Below are positions 2,461-10,270 of a stretch of DNA of 39,041 nucleotides, piece by piece. The stretch is taken from sequence record SRR31156797_2251; one strand, given 5' to 3'. Each line of letters begins with the position of its first letter. Positions within the stretch are counted from its first letter, which is position 1. The translations under genes were made by a program, and so were the position numbers. Below the pieces are notes generated by a model. It ran no database searches. It was not told the origin of the DNA and saw only the letters and a program-made list of their open reading frames with translations.

Positions 2461-3432
2461 ATGACACTCAATGTATTGTTTTGCGTATTTGGTTTTGCCA
2501 TGCTGTATTACGGGGCGGGATGGCTGGTGAAGGGTTCGTCCAGTCTGGCCAGAAGCCTGGGCGTAACACCGGTGGTGATCGGTCTCACGGTGGTGGCCTT
2601 CGGTACTTCCGCGCCCGAACTGGTGGTCAGCATGGTTTCCTCCATTCAGGGCAAGAGCATGATTGCCGTGGGAAATGCGGTGGGAAGCAATATCTGCAAT
2701 ATCGCGCTCATTCTGGGAATGTCGGCGGTTTTTCAGCCCATCACCTGCCACCCATCGGTGGTGAAACGGGACATCCCCATCATGATCGGCATTTCCTTTT
2801 ATCTGCTGGTACTTTCCTTCAATTCCACCATCGGGCGCTTTGAGGGGGCAACCCTCTTTGGCGGACTTATCCTGTATACGTTTTTCAACTATTACAATAC
2901 TCGGAAGGTATCCGCAAGCGGTGCCCATATCATACCCAAACTGAGCACTGAAGAAGCCGGTTTCATAGCATCGAGGGGTAAACAGCTCCTGTTCATCAGC
3001 GTCGGCATATGCGGCGTGGTGTTGGGGGCTCAACTGGTGGTGGATTCCGCCGTAAAGATTATGACGGTGATGGGGGTTTCCGAAAAATTCATAGGGCTGA
3101 CCATCGTGGCCTTCGGCACGTCGCTTCCCGAACTGGCAACCTCTGTTGTGGCGGCCATAAAAAAGGAGATGGATATCAGTGTGGGCAACCTGGTGGGAAG
3201 CAACGTGTTCAACATTCTCGGCGTGGTGGGGGTGGCTTCCCTGATCCGGCCCATCCCCATACCGGGTGGCTTTTTTCACAGCGGCCTGCTCATCGATTAC
3301 CTGGTAATGATATTCATCAGCGCGCTACCCTGGTTCATGATGCGAAAATCCCATACCCTAACCCGTAAAGGCGGACTCATCCTTCTGTTCTGCTATGTGG
3401 GGTACCTGATCTATCTGATTGGTAAAGCATAA
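2461..3432 (+). CDS. Calcium/sodium (CaCA, YrbG family) antiporter, copy 2
   Basis: Canonical alpha-repeats GTSAPE...GNAVGSN and GTSLPE...GNLVGSN. Confidence 0.94.
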   Translation: MTLNVLFCVFGFAMLYYGAGWLVKGSSSLARSLGVTPVVIGLTVVAFGTSAPELVVSMVSSIQGKSMIAVGNAVGSNICNIALILGMSAVFQPITCHPSVVKRDIPIMIGISFYLLVLSFNSTIGRFEGATLFGGLILYTFFNYYNTRKVSASGAHIIPKLSTEEAGFIASRGKQLLFISVGICGVVLGAQLVVDSAVKIMTVMGVSEKFIGLTIVAFGTSLPELATSVVAAIKKEMDISVGNLVGSNVFNILGVVGVASLIRPIPIPGGFFHSGLLIDYLVMIFISALPWFMMRKSHTLTRKGGLILLFCYVGYLIYLIGKA

Positions 3433-3491
3433 GAAAAAACCGAACAATGCATGGCGCCCCGGCAATAAATACCGGTTCAAGGAAAAAATCA

Positions 3492-3519
3492 TTGACAAAC
3501 ACCCCATTCATTTTATAGA
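3492..3519 (+). promoter_or_regulatory. Probable sigma70 promoter upstream of the attenuator
   Basis: TTGACA at 3492 followed by TATAGA after 16 bp. Confidence 0.45.
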
Positions 3520-3554
3520 AGTGTTTAAGAGTATCCGACAATGAGATTATACGC

Positions 3555-3623
3555 ATGATGTATCAAAAATTCACGGGCTTTTTTTATTTTATGTTCTGGG
3601 GAATACCTGTGCCCGTGGATTGA
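3555..3623 (+). CDS. Aromatic-amino-acid-rich leader peptide MMYQKFTGFFYFMFWGIPVPVD (22 aa)
   Basis: 5 Phe, 2 Tyr and 1 Trp in 22 codons, overlapping attenuator segments 1 and 2. Confidence 0.8.
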   Translation: MMYQKFTGFFYFMFWGIPVPVD

Positions 3624-3680
3624 TGGCGTTTTTGACAATTTTAAAGCCGTGGGCATTCAAAAGCCCACGGCTTTTTTTTT
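3568..3680 (+). promoter_or_regulatory. Ribosome-mediated transcription attenuator (1:2 pause stem, 2:3 antiterminator, 3:4 terminator)
   Basis: AATTCACGGGC (3568-78) pairs with GCCCGTGGATT (3611-21). GTGCCCGTGG (3609-18) pairs with CCGTGGGCAT (3647-56). AAAGCCGTGGGC/GCCCACGGCTTT plus T9 forms the terminator (3643-3680). Confidence 0.85.
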
Positions 3681-3747
3681 GCTTCTTTTCCAGCGACGGG
3701 GATTCGGAACCCATAGATTTAAAACATTATGATTGAAGGAAGAAAAA

Positions 3748-6318
3748 ATGAGACAGACGATCTTAAAACCCATTGCCATTACACCCAATTTCTATCGACT
3801 GGGCACGGCTGCTTTTCCTGCTTTTCTGTCCATGGGAAAGGTCGGCATGATCATTGAGGGCGGCACGGGGCCCACGTTTGAGATGATCGTCGAACAGGTC
3901 GGAACCCTGGGTGTTGAGATGAAGCAGATAGAATACATCCTCCTCACCCATACCCATGCGGACCATATCGGCGCCTTGCCCCATTTGAAACACAGGTGGC
4001 CGCATCTCAAACTCGTTGCCAGTGGACCCGGCGCAAGGATACTGAATACCCGGGAGCTGTACAACGAATTCCTTCTGGTGGATCTGGGCATCGCACAGCT
4101 CATGCGCGCCAAATCCGAAATCAACACCATACCGCCCATACCTGAAAATTACCGTTTTGAAGTTGACCTGGTGGTCAAAGGTAATGATACCATCGACCTG
4201 GGAAAAGGCGTGACATGGGAAATCATTGATACCCCGGGTCATTCACCGTGCCATATTTCAGCCTACGAAAAAAGGGATGGCACATTGGTGGTAGGGGATG
4301 CCACGGGTTTCTACGTACCGGAAAAGGACCTTTTCTGGCCCAATTATTTCCTGTCTTTAAAGAGCTATATGGAAAGTATCCAAAAACTCGCCACATTTCC
4401 CGCCAAACGTGCCGTGCTCAGTCACAATGCGGTAGTGGAAGGGGACATTCACCGCTATTTCCAAAGCGCCATGGGGGCAACCCGGAAATATCATGAAAAT
4501 CTTCTGACCCAGCTTGAACGTGGAAATTCAGCCGAAAGTATTGCCCTGGAAGGGGCCCAGTTCGTCAACACCCTCACGGACATCCAGCCCTTCAAGGTCA
4601 TGTACGACCTTTGTAAACTCATGATTAACCGTTCCCGTGAAAATGGTAACTCGCTACATTTCAACCTGTCGAAAGAAGAAACACCTGTCTTCCGTGAAAC
4701 GCCTGAAGCCGAAGTTACGGTGGAATCTTTTTCCGACCCGGATATTTTAACGCTTCCTGAAACCGAAAAAAACCTGAACCTGAGCGAACGATTGAGCCTG
4801 GTGGCATTGATCGATGAAGGCATGCGCCGGGGATTGGCGGAAGCGCCGGTTTCGGCGGACCTGTTTGACAATCTGTGGGAACTGGTGGGCGCCACCGCAA
4901 AGGGCGGCCGTATCAACAGGTTGCCCTTTCCCAAAACAGGCACCGATTCCGAAAATGGGTTTCAGATGTTCGAAATAAAGGCGGAGACCGGCGAAAACCT
5001 CGCCCGCCTCAACATGATCTACCTGAAAAAACCCATACCCTGCTATTACCTGGTGTACGTGGAAGTGGCGGCACCCTTCAGACGAAAAGGTCTGGGGCAC
5101 CAGATTTTGAAATCATTTGCGGATTTTCTCACCCATAAATCAGCCGTGGGCATTCTCGACAACATCATCCCCCAGGAGGATCCCACCAACGATGTTTATT
5201 TGAAACAGTCCTGGATTCCCGTGGAAAAAATCATCGGGAATCTGATGTTTTATAAAGATAACAACTACATGATTTTCATCCCCCCCTCACTGGAAAACAG
5301 GGATCTGAAACAACCGGTCCTGAAACTCATCTATCACTTGAAGCGGAAACGGGCGGTCATTGATATTCGGGAAAACGAAACCATGGTCAAGAAAACGCTC
5401 AATGAATTCAGGGAGCTTTATCAGGCGCTCATGACCTATTTTCATTCGGAACTGGAGAGCTCTCGATCTTCGGTATTCATGCGTTTTCTATTCACCCGCT
5501 TTGTGACCAAATTCATCGCTTTCAGGCGCCGGATCGGCGACCTGGTGGGATATACCGGCGGTGAATCCACCGAACAGGTTGTTCTGGACCCTAGCATCAA
5601 GAGATTACAGGTGAAGTCATATGCCCCGAGAGAATTTGTAAAAGAGGACGCGGTTGTGATGGGGGCACTGGGACTGTTGTCGAAGCTTCCGGAAGATTTA
5701 AAAGAGAAACCGGCCCAGGTCATTGAGTCGCTGCCCAATTATCGAAGGCCCAACTTTATGTTGTGGCTTAAAGAGAACGGGAAAACCTATGAAGACACGC
5801 TGACCTTGGAAGACCTCATGGATCTGGGATTTGATCCCACCCGGTTGAAAGAAATCGAGATCGACCACCAGAACTACATCTTTGAGCGGGTCCAGGCGAG
5901 ACAGATCGACGCCCTTCAAAAAAAGGGGGAATTGCTGTCCAGAATTTCGGCCGAAATGCCCAATACAAAAATCAAAAGCGCCCAGTTGAAAGCGAACCCC
6001 ATTTTGCTGATCATTCGCGACCGTGGAAACGGCTATGTTCTGTGGCGAAAAATAGATGCCATCCACTGGGAAGAAGCCATTGAACAGCTCCAAAGCAATC
6101 CCAGCTTGAAATCGGTTAATGACGCGGTGAAATTGGATAGAATCATTCTTGAAACGGTCAAAACCACAGCCACCACCATCAGCAATGAGTTGCATATGGA
6201 AAGAGAGACGATTATTGACCAGCTAACCCCTTTTGTCTCCTGGGATTTGGCAAATAATCGACCAAAAATGGTGATTGATTTTGCATTCTCTTACCTGGAG
6301 TCCATCTGGATGGCCTAG
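3748..6318 (+). CDS. MBL-fold metallohydrolase fused to a GNAT-like domain and an uncharacterised C-terminal region
   Basis: N-terminal THTHADH...TPGHS...GD...SH metal ligands; central VEVAAPFRRKGLGHQIL acetyl-CoA-binding motif A. ATG 3748 preferred over TTG 3733 (purine-rich RBS in between). Confidence 0.8.
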   Translation: MRQTILKPIAITPNFYRLGTAAFPAFLSMGKVGMIIEGGTGPTFEMIVEQVGTLGVEMKQIEYILLTHTHADHIGALPHLKHRWPHLKLVASGPGARILNTRELYNEFLLVDLGIAQLMRAKSEINTIPPIPENYRFEVDLVVKGNDTIDLGKGVTWEIIDTPGHSPCHISAYEKRDGTLVVGDATGFYVPEKDLFWPNYFLSLKSYMESIQKLATFPAKRAVLSHNAVVEGDIHRYFQSAMGATRKYHENLLTQLERGNSAESIALEGAQFVNTLTDIQPFKVMYDLCKLMINRSRENGNSLHFNLSKEETPVFRETPEAEVTVESFSDPDILTLPETEKNLNLSERLSLVALIDEGMRRGLAEAPVSADLFDNLWELVGATAKGGRINRLPFPKTGTDSENGFQMFEIKAETGENLARLNMIYLKKPIPCYYLVYVEVAAPFRRKGLGHQILKSFADFLTHKSAVGILDNIIPQEDPTNDVYLKQSWIPVEKIIGNLMFYKDNNYMIFIPPSLENRDLKQPVLKLIYHLKRKRAVIDIRENETMVKKTLNEFRELYQALMTYFHSELESSRSSVFMRFLFTRFVTKFIAFRRRIGDLVGYTGGESTEQVVLDPSIKRLQVKSYAPREFVKEDAVVMGALGLLSKLPEDLKEKPAQVIESLPNYRRPNFMLWLKENGKTYEDTLTLEDLMDLGFDPTRLKEIEIDHQNYIFERVQARQIDALQKKGELLSRISAEMPNTKIKSAQLKANPILLIIRDRGNGYVLWRKIDAIHWEEAIEQLQSNPSLKSVNDAVKLDRIILETVKTTATTISNELHMERETIIDQLTPFVSWDLANNRPKMVIDFAFSYLESIWMA

Positions 6319-6322
6319 AATG

Positions 6323-7567
6323 CTAGTAAATCATCCCCACCAGCGCGCCGGTCATGCAGGTGGCAATGGTCCCCGCTAGGATGGATTTGAGCCCCAAACC
6401 CACGATTTCATCGCGTCTTTCAGGCGCCATGGCGCCCAGGCCACCGATCATGATGCCCAGGGAACCGAAATTGGCAAACCCGCACATGGCATAAATCATG
6501 ATCAGGCGACTCCTATCGGACAAGGCTCCTTGGGGTAATGCTGCGAGGTTGAGATAGGCCAGCAATTCATTCAACACGGTTTTGATTCCCATCAACCCTC
6601 CCGCCGTCACGACCTCCGGTCCCGGGATCCCCATGAGCCATGCAACGGGCGCCATCAAATAGCCCACAAGCCGTTCAAAAGTGACCGGTTTACCTGAAAT
6701 TTCAGGCAGGAACGCCAGAACGAGATTCATCAAATGGACCAGGGCCACAAAAACAACCAGCATGGCGATAATATTGATCAGGAGCTTGATGCCGCCCAGA
6801 ACACCATTGGTGATGGCATCCATGGCGCTTTTTGCGCCCCTCGGTACGGCAAGGGCTTCCCCGGAAGAATGGGATGTCTCCGGAACCATGAGTTTGGAGA
6901 TGGTAATGGCGGCGGGGGCACTGACAATGGATGCCACCAGCAGATGCCCCATGATGCCGGGGACCACCGGCTGAAGTATGGACGCGTACAGAACCATCAC
7001 CGTACCGGCAATGGTGGCCATGCCACACACCATAATGGTAAAGAGTTCACTCCTGGAAATCTTTGAAAGGTAAGGCCTGACAAACAGCGGCGCCTCCACC
7101 ATGCCGATAAAGACATTGGCTGCGGCGGCGAGGCCTTCCACGCCACCGATTCCCATGACACGCCTCAGTATCCACGCAAAACCATTGACCACCAGAGGGA
7201 TGATACGCCAATAAAAAAAGAGGGACGTCAAAGCGCTGATCACCAGTACCAGGGGCAACCCCCGAAAGGCGAGCACATAGCTGAAAGCGGGATTTTTCGC
7301 GTCAAAAGGGAGGGGACCGCCTCCCAGATAACCGAACACAAAACCGGTTCCCGCCTGGGTGGACATCTCAATGGCCCGCACGGCTTTGTTCAACCAGCCA
7401 AAAACCTCCTGGCTTCCCGGAAATTTCAGCAGCAACAATGCCAGGCATACCTGCAGTAACAACCCGGCGATCAACGTTCCGGAATTAATATTCTTTCGAC
7501 CCTCTGAAAAGAGCCATGCCAGAAAGGGAAGCACGAGAAAACCTAAGAAACTTTGTAAGTGATTCAA
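6323..7567 (-). CDS. Concentrative nucleoside transporter (CNT/NupC family)
   Basis: Motifs FVFG, ANVFIGMVEAPL, GMATIAG, NELLAY, MCGFANFGSLGI. Start moved from 7756 to TTG 7567, where the hydrophobic N-terminus begins. Confidence 0.93.
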   Translation of the reverse strand: MNHLQSFLGFLVLPFLAWLFSEGRKNINSGTLIAGLLLQVCLALLLLKFPGSQEVFGWLNKAVRAIEMSTQAGTGFVFGYLGGGPLPFDAKNPAFSYVLAFRGLPLVLVISALTSLFFYWRIIPLVVNGFAWILRRVMGIGGVEGLAAAANVFIGMVEAPLFVRPYLSKISRSELFTIMVCGMATIAGTVMVLYASILQPVVPGIMGHLLVASIVSAPAAITISKLMVPETSHSSGEALAVPRGAKSAMDAITNGVLGGIKLLINIIAMLVVFVALVHLMNLVLAFLPEISGKPVTFERLVGYLMAPVAWLMGIPGPEVVTAGGLMGIKTVLNELLAYLNLAALPQGALSDRSRLIMIYAMCGFANFGSLGIMIGGLGAMAPERRDEIVGLGLKSILAGTIATCMTGALVGMIY

Positions 7568-8004
7568 TTTTTCTCTCACAAAAGAAATGGAATAGGCAAG
7601 GCGTTTTGCCGATGAACCGGGCCGATAGTAGCAAAATCCAAGGTTTGGGGTCAATGAAATTGATCGCGCCAACATTTCCCCTCGAACCTGCACCCGCGGC
7701 CGCGCAATATGCCCCACTGTGGGCCCGACTGAAACCCAATCCAGATATCCTGCCACAAAAGTATTGACATATTCATAGAATTTTTAGATGCTATCAACAG
7801 TGACCTATTATAAAGTAAGCATGTTGAAGATGTGACACTGCATGCTGGAAAAAATTCTACTTTAGATGTATACGTTTCAATAAATACATTTTTTCACTTT
7901 GACGGCTCTATTGAACATCATACGTGAAATCATTTCAGATCTTAATATTTTTTGCGGCATTATTTATAACACATTTCATCATTTCTTAAAAGGAGGACGA
8001 ACTA

Positions 8005-8440: not shown

Positions 8441-10270
8441 TTAATGAACGGAAAATTTCCGGGCCAGAGTTTCTATTTCCCGGGCGTACCGTTCATATTC
8501 GGGCGATGTTCCGGGACTGTAGTTCAGATTTTTGTATAGACCCGTGATCTGTGTAAACATCCGGCGAGCGCTCTCCTTATCCTGGAACCGGTAGGTTTGC
8601 CGAATCAGTCTCTTGACCAGTTGAAAGCTTTCAAGCTGCCGATCCAGCGGCATGGAAGCGTCCACGTCGTCAAAGGCATCCTGTTGGAGGAAAACCATAT
8701 CCACCAGGGTGGCTTTCTGCCACGTGACAAAGTCCTCAATGCTGATGCCTTCCTCGCCCGTGACCTGCATCATCTGATAGATGCCATCCCCCTGCACCAA
8801 CAGGTCATGCATGGATTTCACGTCTTCGACCCACGATTCATACAGATTGTCGCGAAACCAGTCCGTGAGCTGGTCCAGATAACGGGACCATGAAATCAGG
8901 GGATCAATGGCGGGATAGAAGCGCTTGTAGGCCCGATCGTAGGAGAGGCCCAGGAAGGTCTTCACGGTGGCCAGGGTGGCCTGGGTCACCGGTTCCTCAA
9001 AGTTCCCTCCGGCGGGGGAAACCGTACCGATCATGGTCAGGGTGCCCACGGCCTGATCGGAACATTTTAAAACACCCGCCCGTTCGTAAACACTCTTGAT
9101 GGCAGAATCCAGGTAAGCGGGATACCCCTCTTCCCCGGGAATCTCTTCCATTCGCCCGGAGGTTTCGCGCATGGCCTGGGCCCATCGGGAGGTGGAATCG
9201 GCGATCACCAGCACATGATATCCCATCTGTCGGTAATATTCCCCCAGGGTAACCCCCGTATAAATGGAGGACTCCCGGGCCGCCACCGGCATGGAAGAGG
9301 TATTGCAGACAATAATGGTGCGGTCCATGAGGGAGCCGCCCGTGCGGGGATCCCGGGTCTCCGGAAATTCCTTGATGGTTTCCACCACTTCACCTGCCCG
9401 CTCGCCGCAGGCGGTCACAATTACGATGTCCACGGTGGAATACCGGGAGATAAGGCTCTGCAATACGGTTTTTCCGGCGCCGAAGGGGCCGGGGATGCAC
9501 GCGGTCCCCCCCAGTGCGATGGGAAAAAAGGTATCGATGATCCGGGTGGTGGTGGTCATGGGCTCACGGGGGTAAAGCCGCTCCACCCGGCGTTTTCGGA
9601 GCATCACCTCGGGAATGGGACGACGGACCGGCCATTTCTGGGTAAGGGTCAACGCCTGCTCGGCGCCGTCATGGCTTCGAATTCGCGCCACCGGCGTATC
9701 CACGGTAAAACTGCCCTGCTGAATCCAGGCGACTTCCACCACCCCGGGCTCATCAAAAGGAACCATAATCTTGTGGCTCAACAGGCCTTCCTGGACGGTG
9801 CCGATGGACTGCCCCGCGAAAAGCCGGTCTCCCCTTGCAACGGTGGGGGTAAAGGCCCACTTTTTTCTGAGGTCCAGGGGAAACAGTTCCAGGCCCCTTG
9901 GAAGAAAAAAACCATGGTCCCGGGCCAATACGGCCAGGGGATTCTCCAACCCGTCAAACACCTGCCCCAACAGACCCGGACCCAGGACCACCGAAAGCAT
10001 TTCACCGCTCATCTCCACCCGGTCGCCCACACGAACGCCCCGGGTGTCTTCAAATACCTGCATATCAGCGGTATTTCCCTGAACCCTGAGCACTTCGGCC
10101 ATGAGCCGTTCCCGGCCCACAAGAATAAAGCCCACTTCATTTTTTCGAATGGCTTTTCCTCCCGTGTGGATGGTCACGAGACTTTCGCGAACCGCCAGAA
10201 TCCTGACGTCGCCCGAACCGTCAAAGGATAACTTTCTCCTGGGTTCAATGGAAAAGCTTGGTTTGTCCAT
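8441..10270 (-). CDS. atpA: V/A-type ATP synthase subunit A (catalytic)
   Basis: GPFGAGKT Walker A, ACGERAGE, NTSSMPVAARE, ADSTSRWAQA, EEGYPAYL. Confidence 0.97.
   Translation of the reverse strand: MDKPSFSIEPRRKLSFDGSGDVRILAVRESLVTIHTGGKAIRKNEVGFILVGRERLMAEVLRVQGNTADMQVFEDTRGVRVGDRVEMSGEMLSVVLGPGLLGQVFDGLENPLAVLARDHGFFLPRGLELFPLDLRKKWAFTPTVARGDRLFAGQSIGTVQEGLLSHKIMVPFDEPGVVEVAWIQQGSFTVDTPVARIRSHDGAEQALTLTQKWPVRRPIPEVMLRKRRVERLYPREPMTTTTRIIDTFFPIALGGTACIPGPFGAGKTVLQSLISRYSTVDIVIVTACGERAGEVVETIKEFPETRDPRTGGSLMDRTIIVCNTSSMPVAARESSIYTGVTLGEYYRQMGYHVLVIADSTSRWAQAMRETSGRMEEIPGEEGYPAYLDSAIKSVYERAGVLKCSDQAVGTLTMIGTVSPAGGNFEEPVTQATLATVKTFLGLSYDRAYKRFYPAIDPLISWSRYLDQLTDWFRDNLYESWVEDVKSMHDLLVQGDGIYQMMQVTGEEGISIEDFVTWQKATLVDMVFLQQDAFDDVDASMPLDRQLESFQLVKRLIRQTYRFQDKESARRMFTQITGLYKNLNYSPGTSPEYERYAREIETLARKFSVH

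Follow-up and report, generated by a model that had tools for sequence, protein, structure and literature searches.

The locus and the anatomy of the leader

The window analyzed here is the whole of a 39,041-nt stretch of DNA from sequence record SRR31156797_2251, and the element in question is a short leader (3555–3680) that stands in front of a gene for an uncharacterized protein of 856 amino acids (aa). The leader opens with an open reading frame (ORF) of 22 codons, which encodes the peptide MMYQKFTGFFYFMFWGIPVPVD and ends in TGA; eight of its codons are aromatic, five for Phe, two for Tyr, and one for Trp. An earlier reading of the same letters (the original prediction) had given this ORF and this codon count, and had taken the element for a Phe/Tyr/Trp leader-peptide attenuator of the trpL/pheL kind controlling a non-biosynthetic gene. 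The terminator that it placed at the end of the element was confirmed at 3643–3680: positions 3643–3654 pair with 3663–3674 through 12 pairs, eight of them G-C, around an 8-nt loop, and the stem runs directly into the T9 tract.

Upstream of the terminator, two helices compete for one segment of RNA. Segment 1, early in the ORF, can pair with segment 2, at its 3′ end, to give the 1:2 helix (3569–3578/3611–3620), for which we count 10 contiguous pairs instead of the 11 first proposed; in the minimum-free-energy fold nine further pairs lie beyond a 3-nt bulge. Segment 2 can alternatively pair with segment 3, which also supplies the 5′ arm of the terminator, and this putative antiterminator (the 2:3 helix, 3609–3618/3647–3656) has 10 pairs, three of them G-U, as predicted. 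The minimum-free-energy fold of 3540–3690 consists of a long 5′ hairpin, with the 1:2 pairing as its core, plus the terminator (the 3:4 helix). At −47.1 kcal/mol it is far more stable than dinucleotide shuffles of the same region (−31.5 ± 3.3 kcal/mol, z = −4.78), none of which, out of 200, was as good.

A promoter-like block sits between the upstream gene and the leader (Table 1), and the block TTGACA...TATAGAAG is kept in L001–L005 and other relatives of this locus; it is the putative promoter of the leader. The consensus promoter scan of the window did not call this site because the scan demands T at position 6 of the −10 element, where the site has A.

The leader upstream of homologous genes

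Scanning one genome per species turned up 33 loci that encode relatives of the 856-aa protein, which with the window make 34 copies; the organisms in the record titles are Desulfatiglandales, NaphS2, Desulfomonile, and others like them. Upstream DNA was readable at 29 of these loci and in the window (30 in all), L006, L021, L022, and L028 having no usable upstream DNA. A search for Phe-rich small ORFs followed by a terminator upstream of homologues had been suggested as the check on the prediction, and a small ORF with a Phe/Tyr run, then a hairpin and a T-run, is indeed present upstream of 27 of the 30 judgeable genes. A blind script found 25 of the 30, all no more than 400 nt from the gene, and those at L013 and L031 were added by position. 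Over 523,768 nt, both strands included, the script returned just two other matches, at 4–46 of L005 (within an exchanger gene) and at 4244–4307 of L023, both of which we judged to be false. The 27 leaders encode 25 distinct peptides and are not independent observations, because several are identical or nearly so (L017, L018, and L020 among them).

The terminator occurs in all 25 tabulated leaders, and in every one the stop codon lies 53–64 nt from the end of the T-run. The ORF has 22 codons in 18 of the 25, a constancy that is partly built in since the script chose the start codon giving a length nearest to 22. Most relatives have a Shine-Dalgarno-like sequence 5–12 nt upstream of the start, generally a purine-rich stretch of the AAGG, AGGAG, or GAGG type within the preceding 16 nt, and this is less clear in L007, L019, and L024.

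The two leaders added by position each have a peculiarity. At L013 the element lies ∼470 nt upstream of the gene; the ∼400 nt between its terminator and the gene (L013:2575–2983) contain repeats of CCTGACACC-like words and may have been inserted. At L031 (1439–4161) a leader with ..SFFFYCF.. and a terminator precedes a family III CoA-transferase gene (1701–2909), and the homologue of our gene follows directly 3′ of it under the shared leader, its frame closing early at 4161 while similarity continues to 4538.

Among the 30 readable loci, no leader element was found at L010, L014, and L015. L010 (2850–3001), a second paralogue in NaphS2, whose copy at L007 does carry the element, lies downstream of a Na+/Ca2+ exchanger gene as the window gene does, and is without the promoter, the leader ORF, and segments 1–3; what is left is a piece resembling segment 4 with its T-run, AAAGCCCGCGGCTTTTTTT. 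From its sequence, L010 looks like a natural deletion that would release the gene from attenuation.

Two groups of leaders with a common aromatic core

The leaders fall into two groups. Group A comprises the window and 13 loci, all with an MBL-fused gene, and 13 of its leaders were aligned; group B comprises 12 loci at which the homologue is a stand-alone GNAT-kinase protein of ∼530 aa, corresponding roughly to residues 306–856 of the window protein. Because the module without the MBL domain also carries the leader, the leader, to judge from this distribution, goes with the GNAT-kinase module and not with the MBL domain.

Group-A leaders encode peptides such as ..FTGFFYFRF..PVD and have in common the terminator arm AAGCCGTGGG, which is invariant in the 13 that were aligned. 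Between the groups there is no common stem sequence, the terminators being GCCGTGGGC/GCCCACGGC in group A versus GCGGAG/CTCCGC in group B, and the residues that flank the run in group B also differ from those in group A. What both groups have is a core of the [FY]FYF type at codons 8–15, which in group B reads YFYF, YFYFYF, YYYFYF, or FYYYFF. Across the relatives the runs are of three to seven consecutive aromatic codons, for Phe and Tyr, with a single Trp codon in L001. Since the stems are unrelated yet the run is kept, and since the run is spelled in different ways (synonymous TAT/TAC changes inside it between L029 and L030, and FYFYFY from a different nucleotide string in L019 of group A), we conclude from these comparisons that the conserved feature is the aromatic peptide or codon run together with the architecture, and not a nucleotide motif. 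Phe and Tyr are both present in all 25 tabulated leaders and Trp in only three; of the three residues first proposed, Phe and Tyr thus stand as conserved regulatory residues, and Trp does not.

Codon choice within the runs is strongly skewed. Phe is spelled TTT in 67 of 68 cases, compared with 76 of 128 in five window genes (Fisher p = 6.6e-11, an indicative value, as the leaders are interrelated and come from other genomes), and Tyr is spelled TAT 38 times and TAC 12 times. The preference for TTT may stem from slower decoding by wobble, from the loop having to be U-rich, or from runs prone to slippage, as discussed for pheL (PMC3082878).

Helix conservation and folding across the relatives

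In the 13 aligned group-A leaders, 86.9% of the cells of the 1:2 helix, 94.2% of those of 3:4, and 95.4% of those of 2:3 are paired, whereas controls slid by 1–3 columns give 24–49%. The pair at columns 45/86 of the 1:2 helix is C-G in nine leaders and U-A in three, and at columns 80/129 of the 2:3 helix the pair is G-C in six, A-U in three, and G-U in one. The covariation score was reached by 9/500 and 35/500 shuffles and is marginal.

We also folded the 25 leaders individually. The unconstrained fold holds the terminator in 24 (the exception is L025). A ribosome stalled on the run was mimicked by cutting off the 3′ arm of the terminator and masking the RNA to 13 nt past the last aromatic codon; under these constraints the 5′ arm or the loop of the terminator pairs with the 3′ end of the ORF in 23 of the 25 leaders, at least seven nucleotides of the arm being paired in 17 of these 23. 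L024 has no clean antiterminator pairing, and L025 was mis-parsed by the script. When the mask instead extended to 13 nt past the stop codon, the terminator alone remained. The energy of the antiterminator was matched by at most 10 of 200 shuffles in 15 of the 25 leaders, and with full-length RNA and the stall mask the antiterminator was the minimum-free-energy form in seven.

Similar leaders on aromatic biosynthesis genes

Five genomes of relatives (G001–G005) were searched with the pattern TTTTATTTT-N(66–92)-CTTTTTT. It recovered the known leader in each of the five and one further real leader, in G003. TWYTTYTAYTTY alone was uninformative as a pattern, with 73–133 matches per genome, at or below the reversed-pattern control. 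The additional G003 leader encodes MFLKRSWQGFYFYCSGGPSML (..RSWQGFYFY..) and has a terminator related to that of group A. It is followed by aroK-aroC-aroD-aroE-aroA, that is, genes for shikimate kinase, chorismate synthase, dehydroquinase, shikimate dehydrogenase, and 5-enolpyruvylshikimate-3-phosphate (EPSP) synthase, and a leader is likewise found upstream of aroK in G001 and G002.

Scanning the regions around the genes for 3-deoxy-D-arabino-heptulosonate 7-phosphate (DAHP) synthase and prephenate dehydratase in G001–G003 gave three more types of leader (loci in Table 1). One DAHP synthase gene is preceded by a Trp-rich leader (..FRFFWWWRW..) and a second by a Tyr-rich leader (..YYWFYAY..), with tyrA 2–3 kb downstream on the same strand; the third follows a Phe-rich leader (..FFTFGCFFFGF..) and is itself followed by a chorismate mutase/prephenate dehydratase gene. 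On this sequence evidence codon-specific leader attenuation appears to govern the aromatic pathway of the lineage, and the window element would be a mixed Phe/Tyr member of this aromatic leader set. Because leaders of the same design serve the aromatic pathway in relatives, the charging of tRNA-Phe and tRNA-Tyr is the most likely signal for the window element.

One other sequence in G003 (NaphS2) caught our attention. At least 13 contigs (L072, L075, and L079, for example) carry a near-identical 76-nt stretch that starts with TTTTATTTTTGCCAACCCCCACC and ends in a T-run; it is often near the contig end and resembles a multicopy repeat or one end of a mobile element.

The regulated protein

The 856-aa protein is predicted to have three domains. 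The N-terminal MBL domain (aa 34–226) scores 84.2 bits against Pfam Lactamase_B (cut-off 22.7), and no beta-lactamase model, subclass B3 included, reaches its cut-off on this domain. Its closest relative of solved structure is PqsE of Pseudomonas aeruginosa, a thioesterase for the aryl-acyl-CoA 2-aminobenzoylacetyl-CoA (phmmer E = 4.4e-18, 68.7 bits, target residues 14–235); both are MBL-fold proteins of moderate similarity, and the window protein has two further domains that PqsE does not. This similarity and the CoA-transferase neighbor at L031 together hint at acyl-CoA chemistry.

For the middle domain, Pfam Acetyltransf_1 matches the window fragment with E = 0.0051 and 17.5 bits, below its 20.7-bit cut-off, and matches 35 of 40 family members at E ≤ 1 (best 4.8e-6). 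An AlphaFold model of aa 330–856 (mean pLDDT 78.2) places a GNAT fold at ∼388–538, which superimposes on 3ey5_A with Z 10.1 and a root-mean-square deviation (rmsd) of 3.4 Å over 120 residues. The GNAT fold is therefore supported by the model. A query of the ESM Atlas with aa 330–856 returned just GNAT-type clusters, with scores of 0.80–0.81 that lie below what the tool counts as evidence.

The C-terminal domain is less well defined. A separate model of aa 627–856 (pLDDT 85.5) has as its top fold match WaaP (6dfl_A, Z 7.5, rmsd 4.7 Å over 156 residues), and the 50 matches listed are mostly kinases or phosphotransferases, all with Z < 8, a common range for the tool; the siderophore synthetases AsbB, IucA, AcsD, and SbnC are within the first twelve. 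Foldseek against the Protein Data Bank (PDB) gave no match at E ≤ 0.001 for either model (best for the C-terminal model, 3.6e-3), and the family profile found nothing under E = 0.05 among PDB sequences. The conserved stretches DRGNGY, VLRRK, HWEEAIEQ, SWDLxNNRP, and IDF may be read as kinase-like motifs. We treat the kinase-like domain, which comes from these motifs and the model, as a lead and not as a finding.

Of 7999 candidates scored, 698 proteins fall in the family at E ≤ 1e-3, which makes it a large one, and its members carry generic fold labels in the source listings apart from one similarity-based "2-aminobenzoylacetyl-CoA thioesterase." The target had been described as an MBL-GNAT fusion. 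Both of these domains are recognizable, and to them have to be added a third, putatively kinase-like domain and the existence of the module without MBL. That the target is non-biosynthetic, as was also claimed, is not established; co-regulation points to aromatic amino-acid metabolism.

Neighboring genes

Upstream of the leader in the window, two Na+/Ca2+ exchanger paralogues stand in tandem. On the other side, a nucleoside transporter gene is convergent with the 856-aa gene, and the regulated unit in the window is for this reason a single gene. Further downstream, on the minus strand, lies a gene for a V/A-type ATPase catalytic subunit. Neighboring genes were considered as a clue to function and dropped, there being no consistent link: Desulfomonile-type loci have a divergent PmbA/TldD peptidase and TPR proteins; L003 and L005 have an amidase, a universal stress protein, and a Na/Ca exchanger; and L013 has a solute-binding protein.

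Table 1. Positions of the leader, its predicted parts, the gene it precedes, and related loci. Numbers refer to the window (position 1 is its first nucleotide) unless a locus is named.
Feature	Position	Strand	Remarks
Na+/Ca2+ exchanger paralogues (two genes)	1303–2355; 2461–3432		tandem
Promoter-like site	3492–3519	+	TTGACA 3492–3497, 16-nt spacer, TATAGA 3514–3519
Weak Shine-Dalgarno-like TGAGAT	3542–3547	+	8 nt upstream of the leader ATG
Leader ORF	3555–3623	+	22 codons, stop TGA
Segment 1, 5′ arm of the 1:2 helix	3569–3578	+	codons 5–8
Candidate regulatory codon run TTT TTT TAT TTT	3579–3590	+	F9 F10 Y11 F12; within the loop of the 1:2 helix
F14 and W15 codons	3594–3599	+	downstream of the run
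Segment 2	3609–3620	+	pairs with segment 1 via 3611–3620 or segment 3 via 3609–3618; ends at the stop codon; codons 19–22
Segment 3	3643–3656	+	terminator 5′ arm 3643–3654; antiterminator partner 3647–3656
Segment 4 and T9	3663–3680	+	terminator 3′ arm 3663–3674; T9 tract 3672–3680
856-aa gene	3748–6318	+	three predicted domains: MBL, GNAT fold, kinase-like C-terminal
MBL domain	aa 34–226, ∼nt 3847–4425	+	
GNAT fold	aa ∼388–538, ∼nt 4909–5361	+	supported by model
Kinase-like C-terminal domain	aa ∼635–856, ∼nt 5650–6315	+	lead
Nucleoside transporter gene	6323–7756	−	convergent
V/A-type ATPase catalytic subunit gene	8441–10270	−	
Aromatic-operon leader loci in relatives G001–G003	L108:9960–10100 (minus strand), L109, L111; L119, L121; L122–L124; L116, L117, L125, L126		

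A predicted attenuator of the leader-peptide type

With the anatomy of the sequence, its conservation, the alternative folds computed in silico, and the similar leaders on aromatic operons observed as set out above, we consider it probable that the element is a ribosome-mediated (leader-peptide) transcription attenuator that senses the charging of tRNA-Phe and tRNA-Tyr. The trpL/pheL-type geometry of the original prediction holds up well, since the ORF, the aromatic run, and the mutually exclusive helices are kept upstream of homologues, and the same design is found on aromatic operons. The preference for tRNA charging over the rival explanations weighed below comes mainly from the codon-specific aromatic leader set in the lineage.

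In the mechanism we propose, transcription would begin from the promoter-like site near 3492–3519 and the 22-codon leader would be translated. When Phe-tRNA or Tyr-tRNA is scarce, the ribosome would stall on FFYF (3579–3590), covering segment 1 and leaving segment 2 free to pair with segment 3 (3647–3656) before segment 4 is transcribed; the terminator would then not form, and transcription would read through into the 856-aa gene. When both tRNAs are charged, the ribosome would reach the TGA at 3621–3623 and cover segment 2, so that the 3:4 terminator could form and transcription would stop at T9. Without translation, the 1:2 and 3:4 helices would both form and transcription would also stop. 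The distances agree with this scheme: given a ribosome footprint of the usual size, decoding of the run in the A site would put segment 1 under the ribosome and leave segment 2 exposed, and a ribosome at the stop codon would have segment 2 under it. As Phe and Tyr codons are interleaved, running short of one of the two amino acids should be enough. That the leader is translated, that the ribosome stalls, and which way the response goes are points that we infer.

Several observations count against this scheme. The Shine-Dalgarno sequence of the window leader is weak. The window 2:3 helix, at −13.7 kcal/mol, is matched by 74 of 200 shuffles of the intervening segment, and is thus not beyond chance on energy alone; its support is conservation in relatives. 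Covariation within group A is thin: only two pairs per tested structure change on both sides, a count matched by 280/500 and 229/500 shuffles, and the sequences are moreover closely related. RNAalifold on group B recovers the terminator alone; the 1:2 and 2:3 helices of the subgroups do not fall into matching alignment columns. The energetics raise a further difficulty, since the window antiterminator (−13.7 kcal/mol) is weaker than the terminator (−23.3 kcal/mol), and in 18 of the 25 stall-masked full-length leaders, the window included, the terminator stays the minimum-free-energy form, so that the switch would have to be kinetic. The near-exclusive use of TTT argues for some constraint at the level of RNA or decoding speed beyond the encoded amino acid. 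Finally, no link of the target to Phe or Tyr is known, nor does it fill an evident gap in the pathway. All five genomes (G001–G005) have chorismate mutase and prephenate dehydrogenase elsewhere, and the three searched for prephenate dehydratase (G001–G003) have that as well; the idea that the protein substitutes for a missing one of these three enzymes is not supported.

We were concerned that the run might matter as a peptide instead of as codons, in the manner of the arrest peptides TnaC and SpeFL, with YFYF in the exit tunnel sensing a small molecule, such as free Phe or Tyr or some other aromatic, independently of tRNA charging. The run does sit at constant codons (8–15) of an ORF that is 22 codons long in most leaders (albeit with starts chosen for that length), the Y-F-Y-F alternation is regular and not a random mix, and the TTT bias would fit as well. 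Nevertheless, we think this explanation unlikely. The length (3–7) and order of the run vary, from FFYF and YFYF to FYFYFY, FYYYFF, and YYYFYF, which is a better fit to a codon counter than to a shaped arrest peptide, and the residues after the run are wholly different between the groups and track the RNA stems. Runs that are Trp-, Tyr-, or Phe-only in the same design occur on the matching biosynthetic operons. Moreover, a ribosome arrested at the stop codon would lie over segment 2 and favor termination, leaving no switch.

The domains of the target suggest another possibility, a drug-responsive element of the ermC or cat type, in which stalling by translation inhibitors would turn on a modifying or resistance enzyme; a GNAT domain joined to an APH-like kinase recalls the bifunctional AAC-APH enzymes, and the MBL domain could be seen in the same light. 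The C-terminal domain has weak fold matches to aminoglycoside and macrolide phosphotransferases (Z 5.4–6.5), the GNAT domain matches AAC(2′) with Z 8.1–8.6, and group-B peptides end in RLR, RFR, or RGR, which we take to resemble the +x+ macrolide arrest motif. The kinase matches, however, are to the general kinase fold in a range (Z < 8) that is common, and the nearest solved MBL relative is the CoA thioesterase PqsE and not a beta-lactamase. The RLR ending is not in group A, where the peptides end in PVD, PMD, or PVG (the frame-shifted L005 apart), and it falls within RNA segment 2, leaving the Phe/Tyr run as the sole peptide feature common to both groups. Given also that the same lineage puts this leader design on shikimate-pathway operons, we regard a response to drugs as very unlikely. 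That the small ORF is untranslated, the RNA being a protein- or ligand-binding switch or merely the terminator of the upstream gene with a promoter-proximal hairpin, would suit the weak Shine-Dalgarno sequence of the window, the U-rich tract conserved at the nucleotide level, and the invariance of the terminator 5′ arm within each group, but is hardly credible when the start, a Shine-Dalgarno-like sequence (in most), the open frame, and the stop at segment 2 are kept in 25 leaders despite unrelated flanks, TAT/TAC changes in the run are synonymous, a promoter-like block separates the leader from the upstream gene, and no Rfam family reaches threshold.

Relation to known attenuators

Leader-peptide attenuators with runs of Phe codons are familiar from pheL-pheA and pheM-pheST of Escherichia coli, pheM having one Tyr codon as well. 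The elements described here resemble them in the short leader ORF with its Phe run, the alternative 1:2, 2:3, and 3:4 helices, the intrinsic terminator, and the U-rich TTT runs. Unlike them, they interleave Phe and Tyr codons, both always present, belong to a Desulfatiglandales-like host of the Thermodesulfobacteriota and not to a gammaproteobacterium, and precede an uncharacterized enzyme instead of pheA or pheST. Nor does the window element match a known leader family such as Phe_leader: cmscan of 3300–3900 at E ≤ 10 gave 18 matches, all below gathering and no leader family among them, the best full-length Rfam match being the trpB motif with 23.7 bits against a threshold of 59. The pheL leader is also described in PMC3082878.

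Aromatic biosynthesis in E. coli also has isoenzyme-specific control of DAHP synthases, exerted on aroF-tyrA, aroG, and aroH by TyrR and TrpR. In G001–G003 there are likewise three DAHP synthase genes, each tied to one aromatic amino acid, but the predicted control is by leader-peptide attenuation (Trp-, Tyr-, or Phe-rich) rather than by repressor proteins.

Attenuation of this kind outside enterobacterial biosynthetic operons has precedents. PMC1262725 reports attenuators of the classical kind in front of trpS and leuS in Streptomyces, as well as in proteobacteria at large, and reports no conserved RNA elements for phenylalanine or tyrosine operons in Actinobacteria. Compared with trpS and leuS as treated there, the present case concerns a different phylum and a gene without assigned function. 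A full-text literature search, whose coverage leaves out most subscription journals, found no description of the elements reported here. The mechanism itself is a textbook one; new here are the host lineage, the mixing of Phe with Tyr codons in the run, and the regulated gene.

Implications for the protein family and the lineage

From the shared leader design we infer that the regulated protein belongs to the aromatic amino-acid regulon of the lineage. We go further only tentatively: the GNAT plus kinase-like family may be an unrecognized component of Phe/Tyr metabolism in anaerobic Thermodesulfobacteriota, switched on when the charging of tRNA-Phe or tRNA-Tyr falls, although we would stop short of calling this the expected outcome. 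Two versions are possible. The protein might act on an aryl-acyl-CoA or an amino-acid derivative and so spare or salvage Phe and Tyr, or it might inactivate an antimetabolite of Phe or Tyr or an inhibitor of the two synthetases, the attenuator then sensing apparent starvation.

For a family that has no name, the conserved leader provides a functional lead, namely that of a protein wanted when Phe or Tyr is short and controlled like the shikimate pathway, which is a hypothesis that can be tested. The two groups of leaders, in which the peptide core and the architecture are kept and the stems are fully replaced, provide a clean case in nature of the evolutionary turnover of an attenuator. More broadly, in this anaerobic lineage of the Thermodesulfobacteriota the whole aromatic amino-acid regulon appears to be under leader-peptide attenuation, codon-specific for three DAHP synthase isoenzymes.

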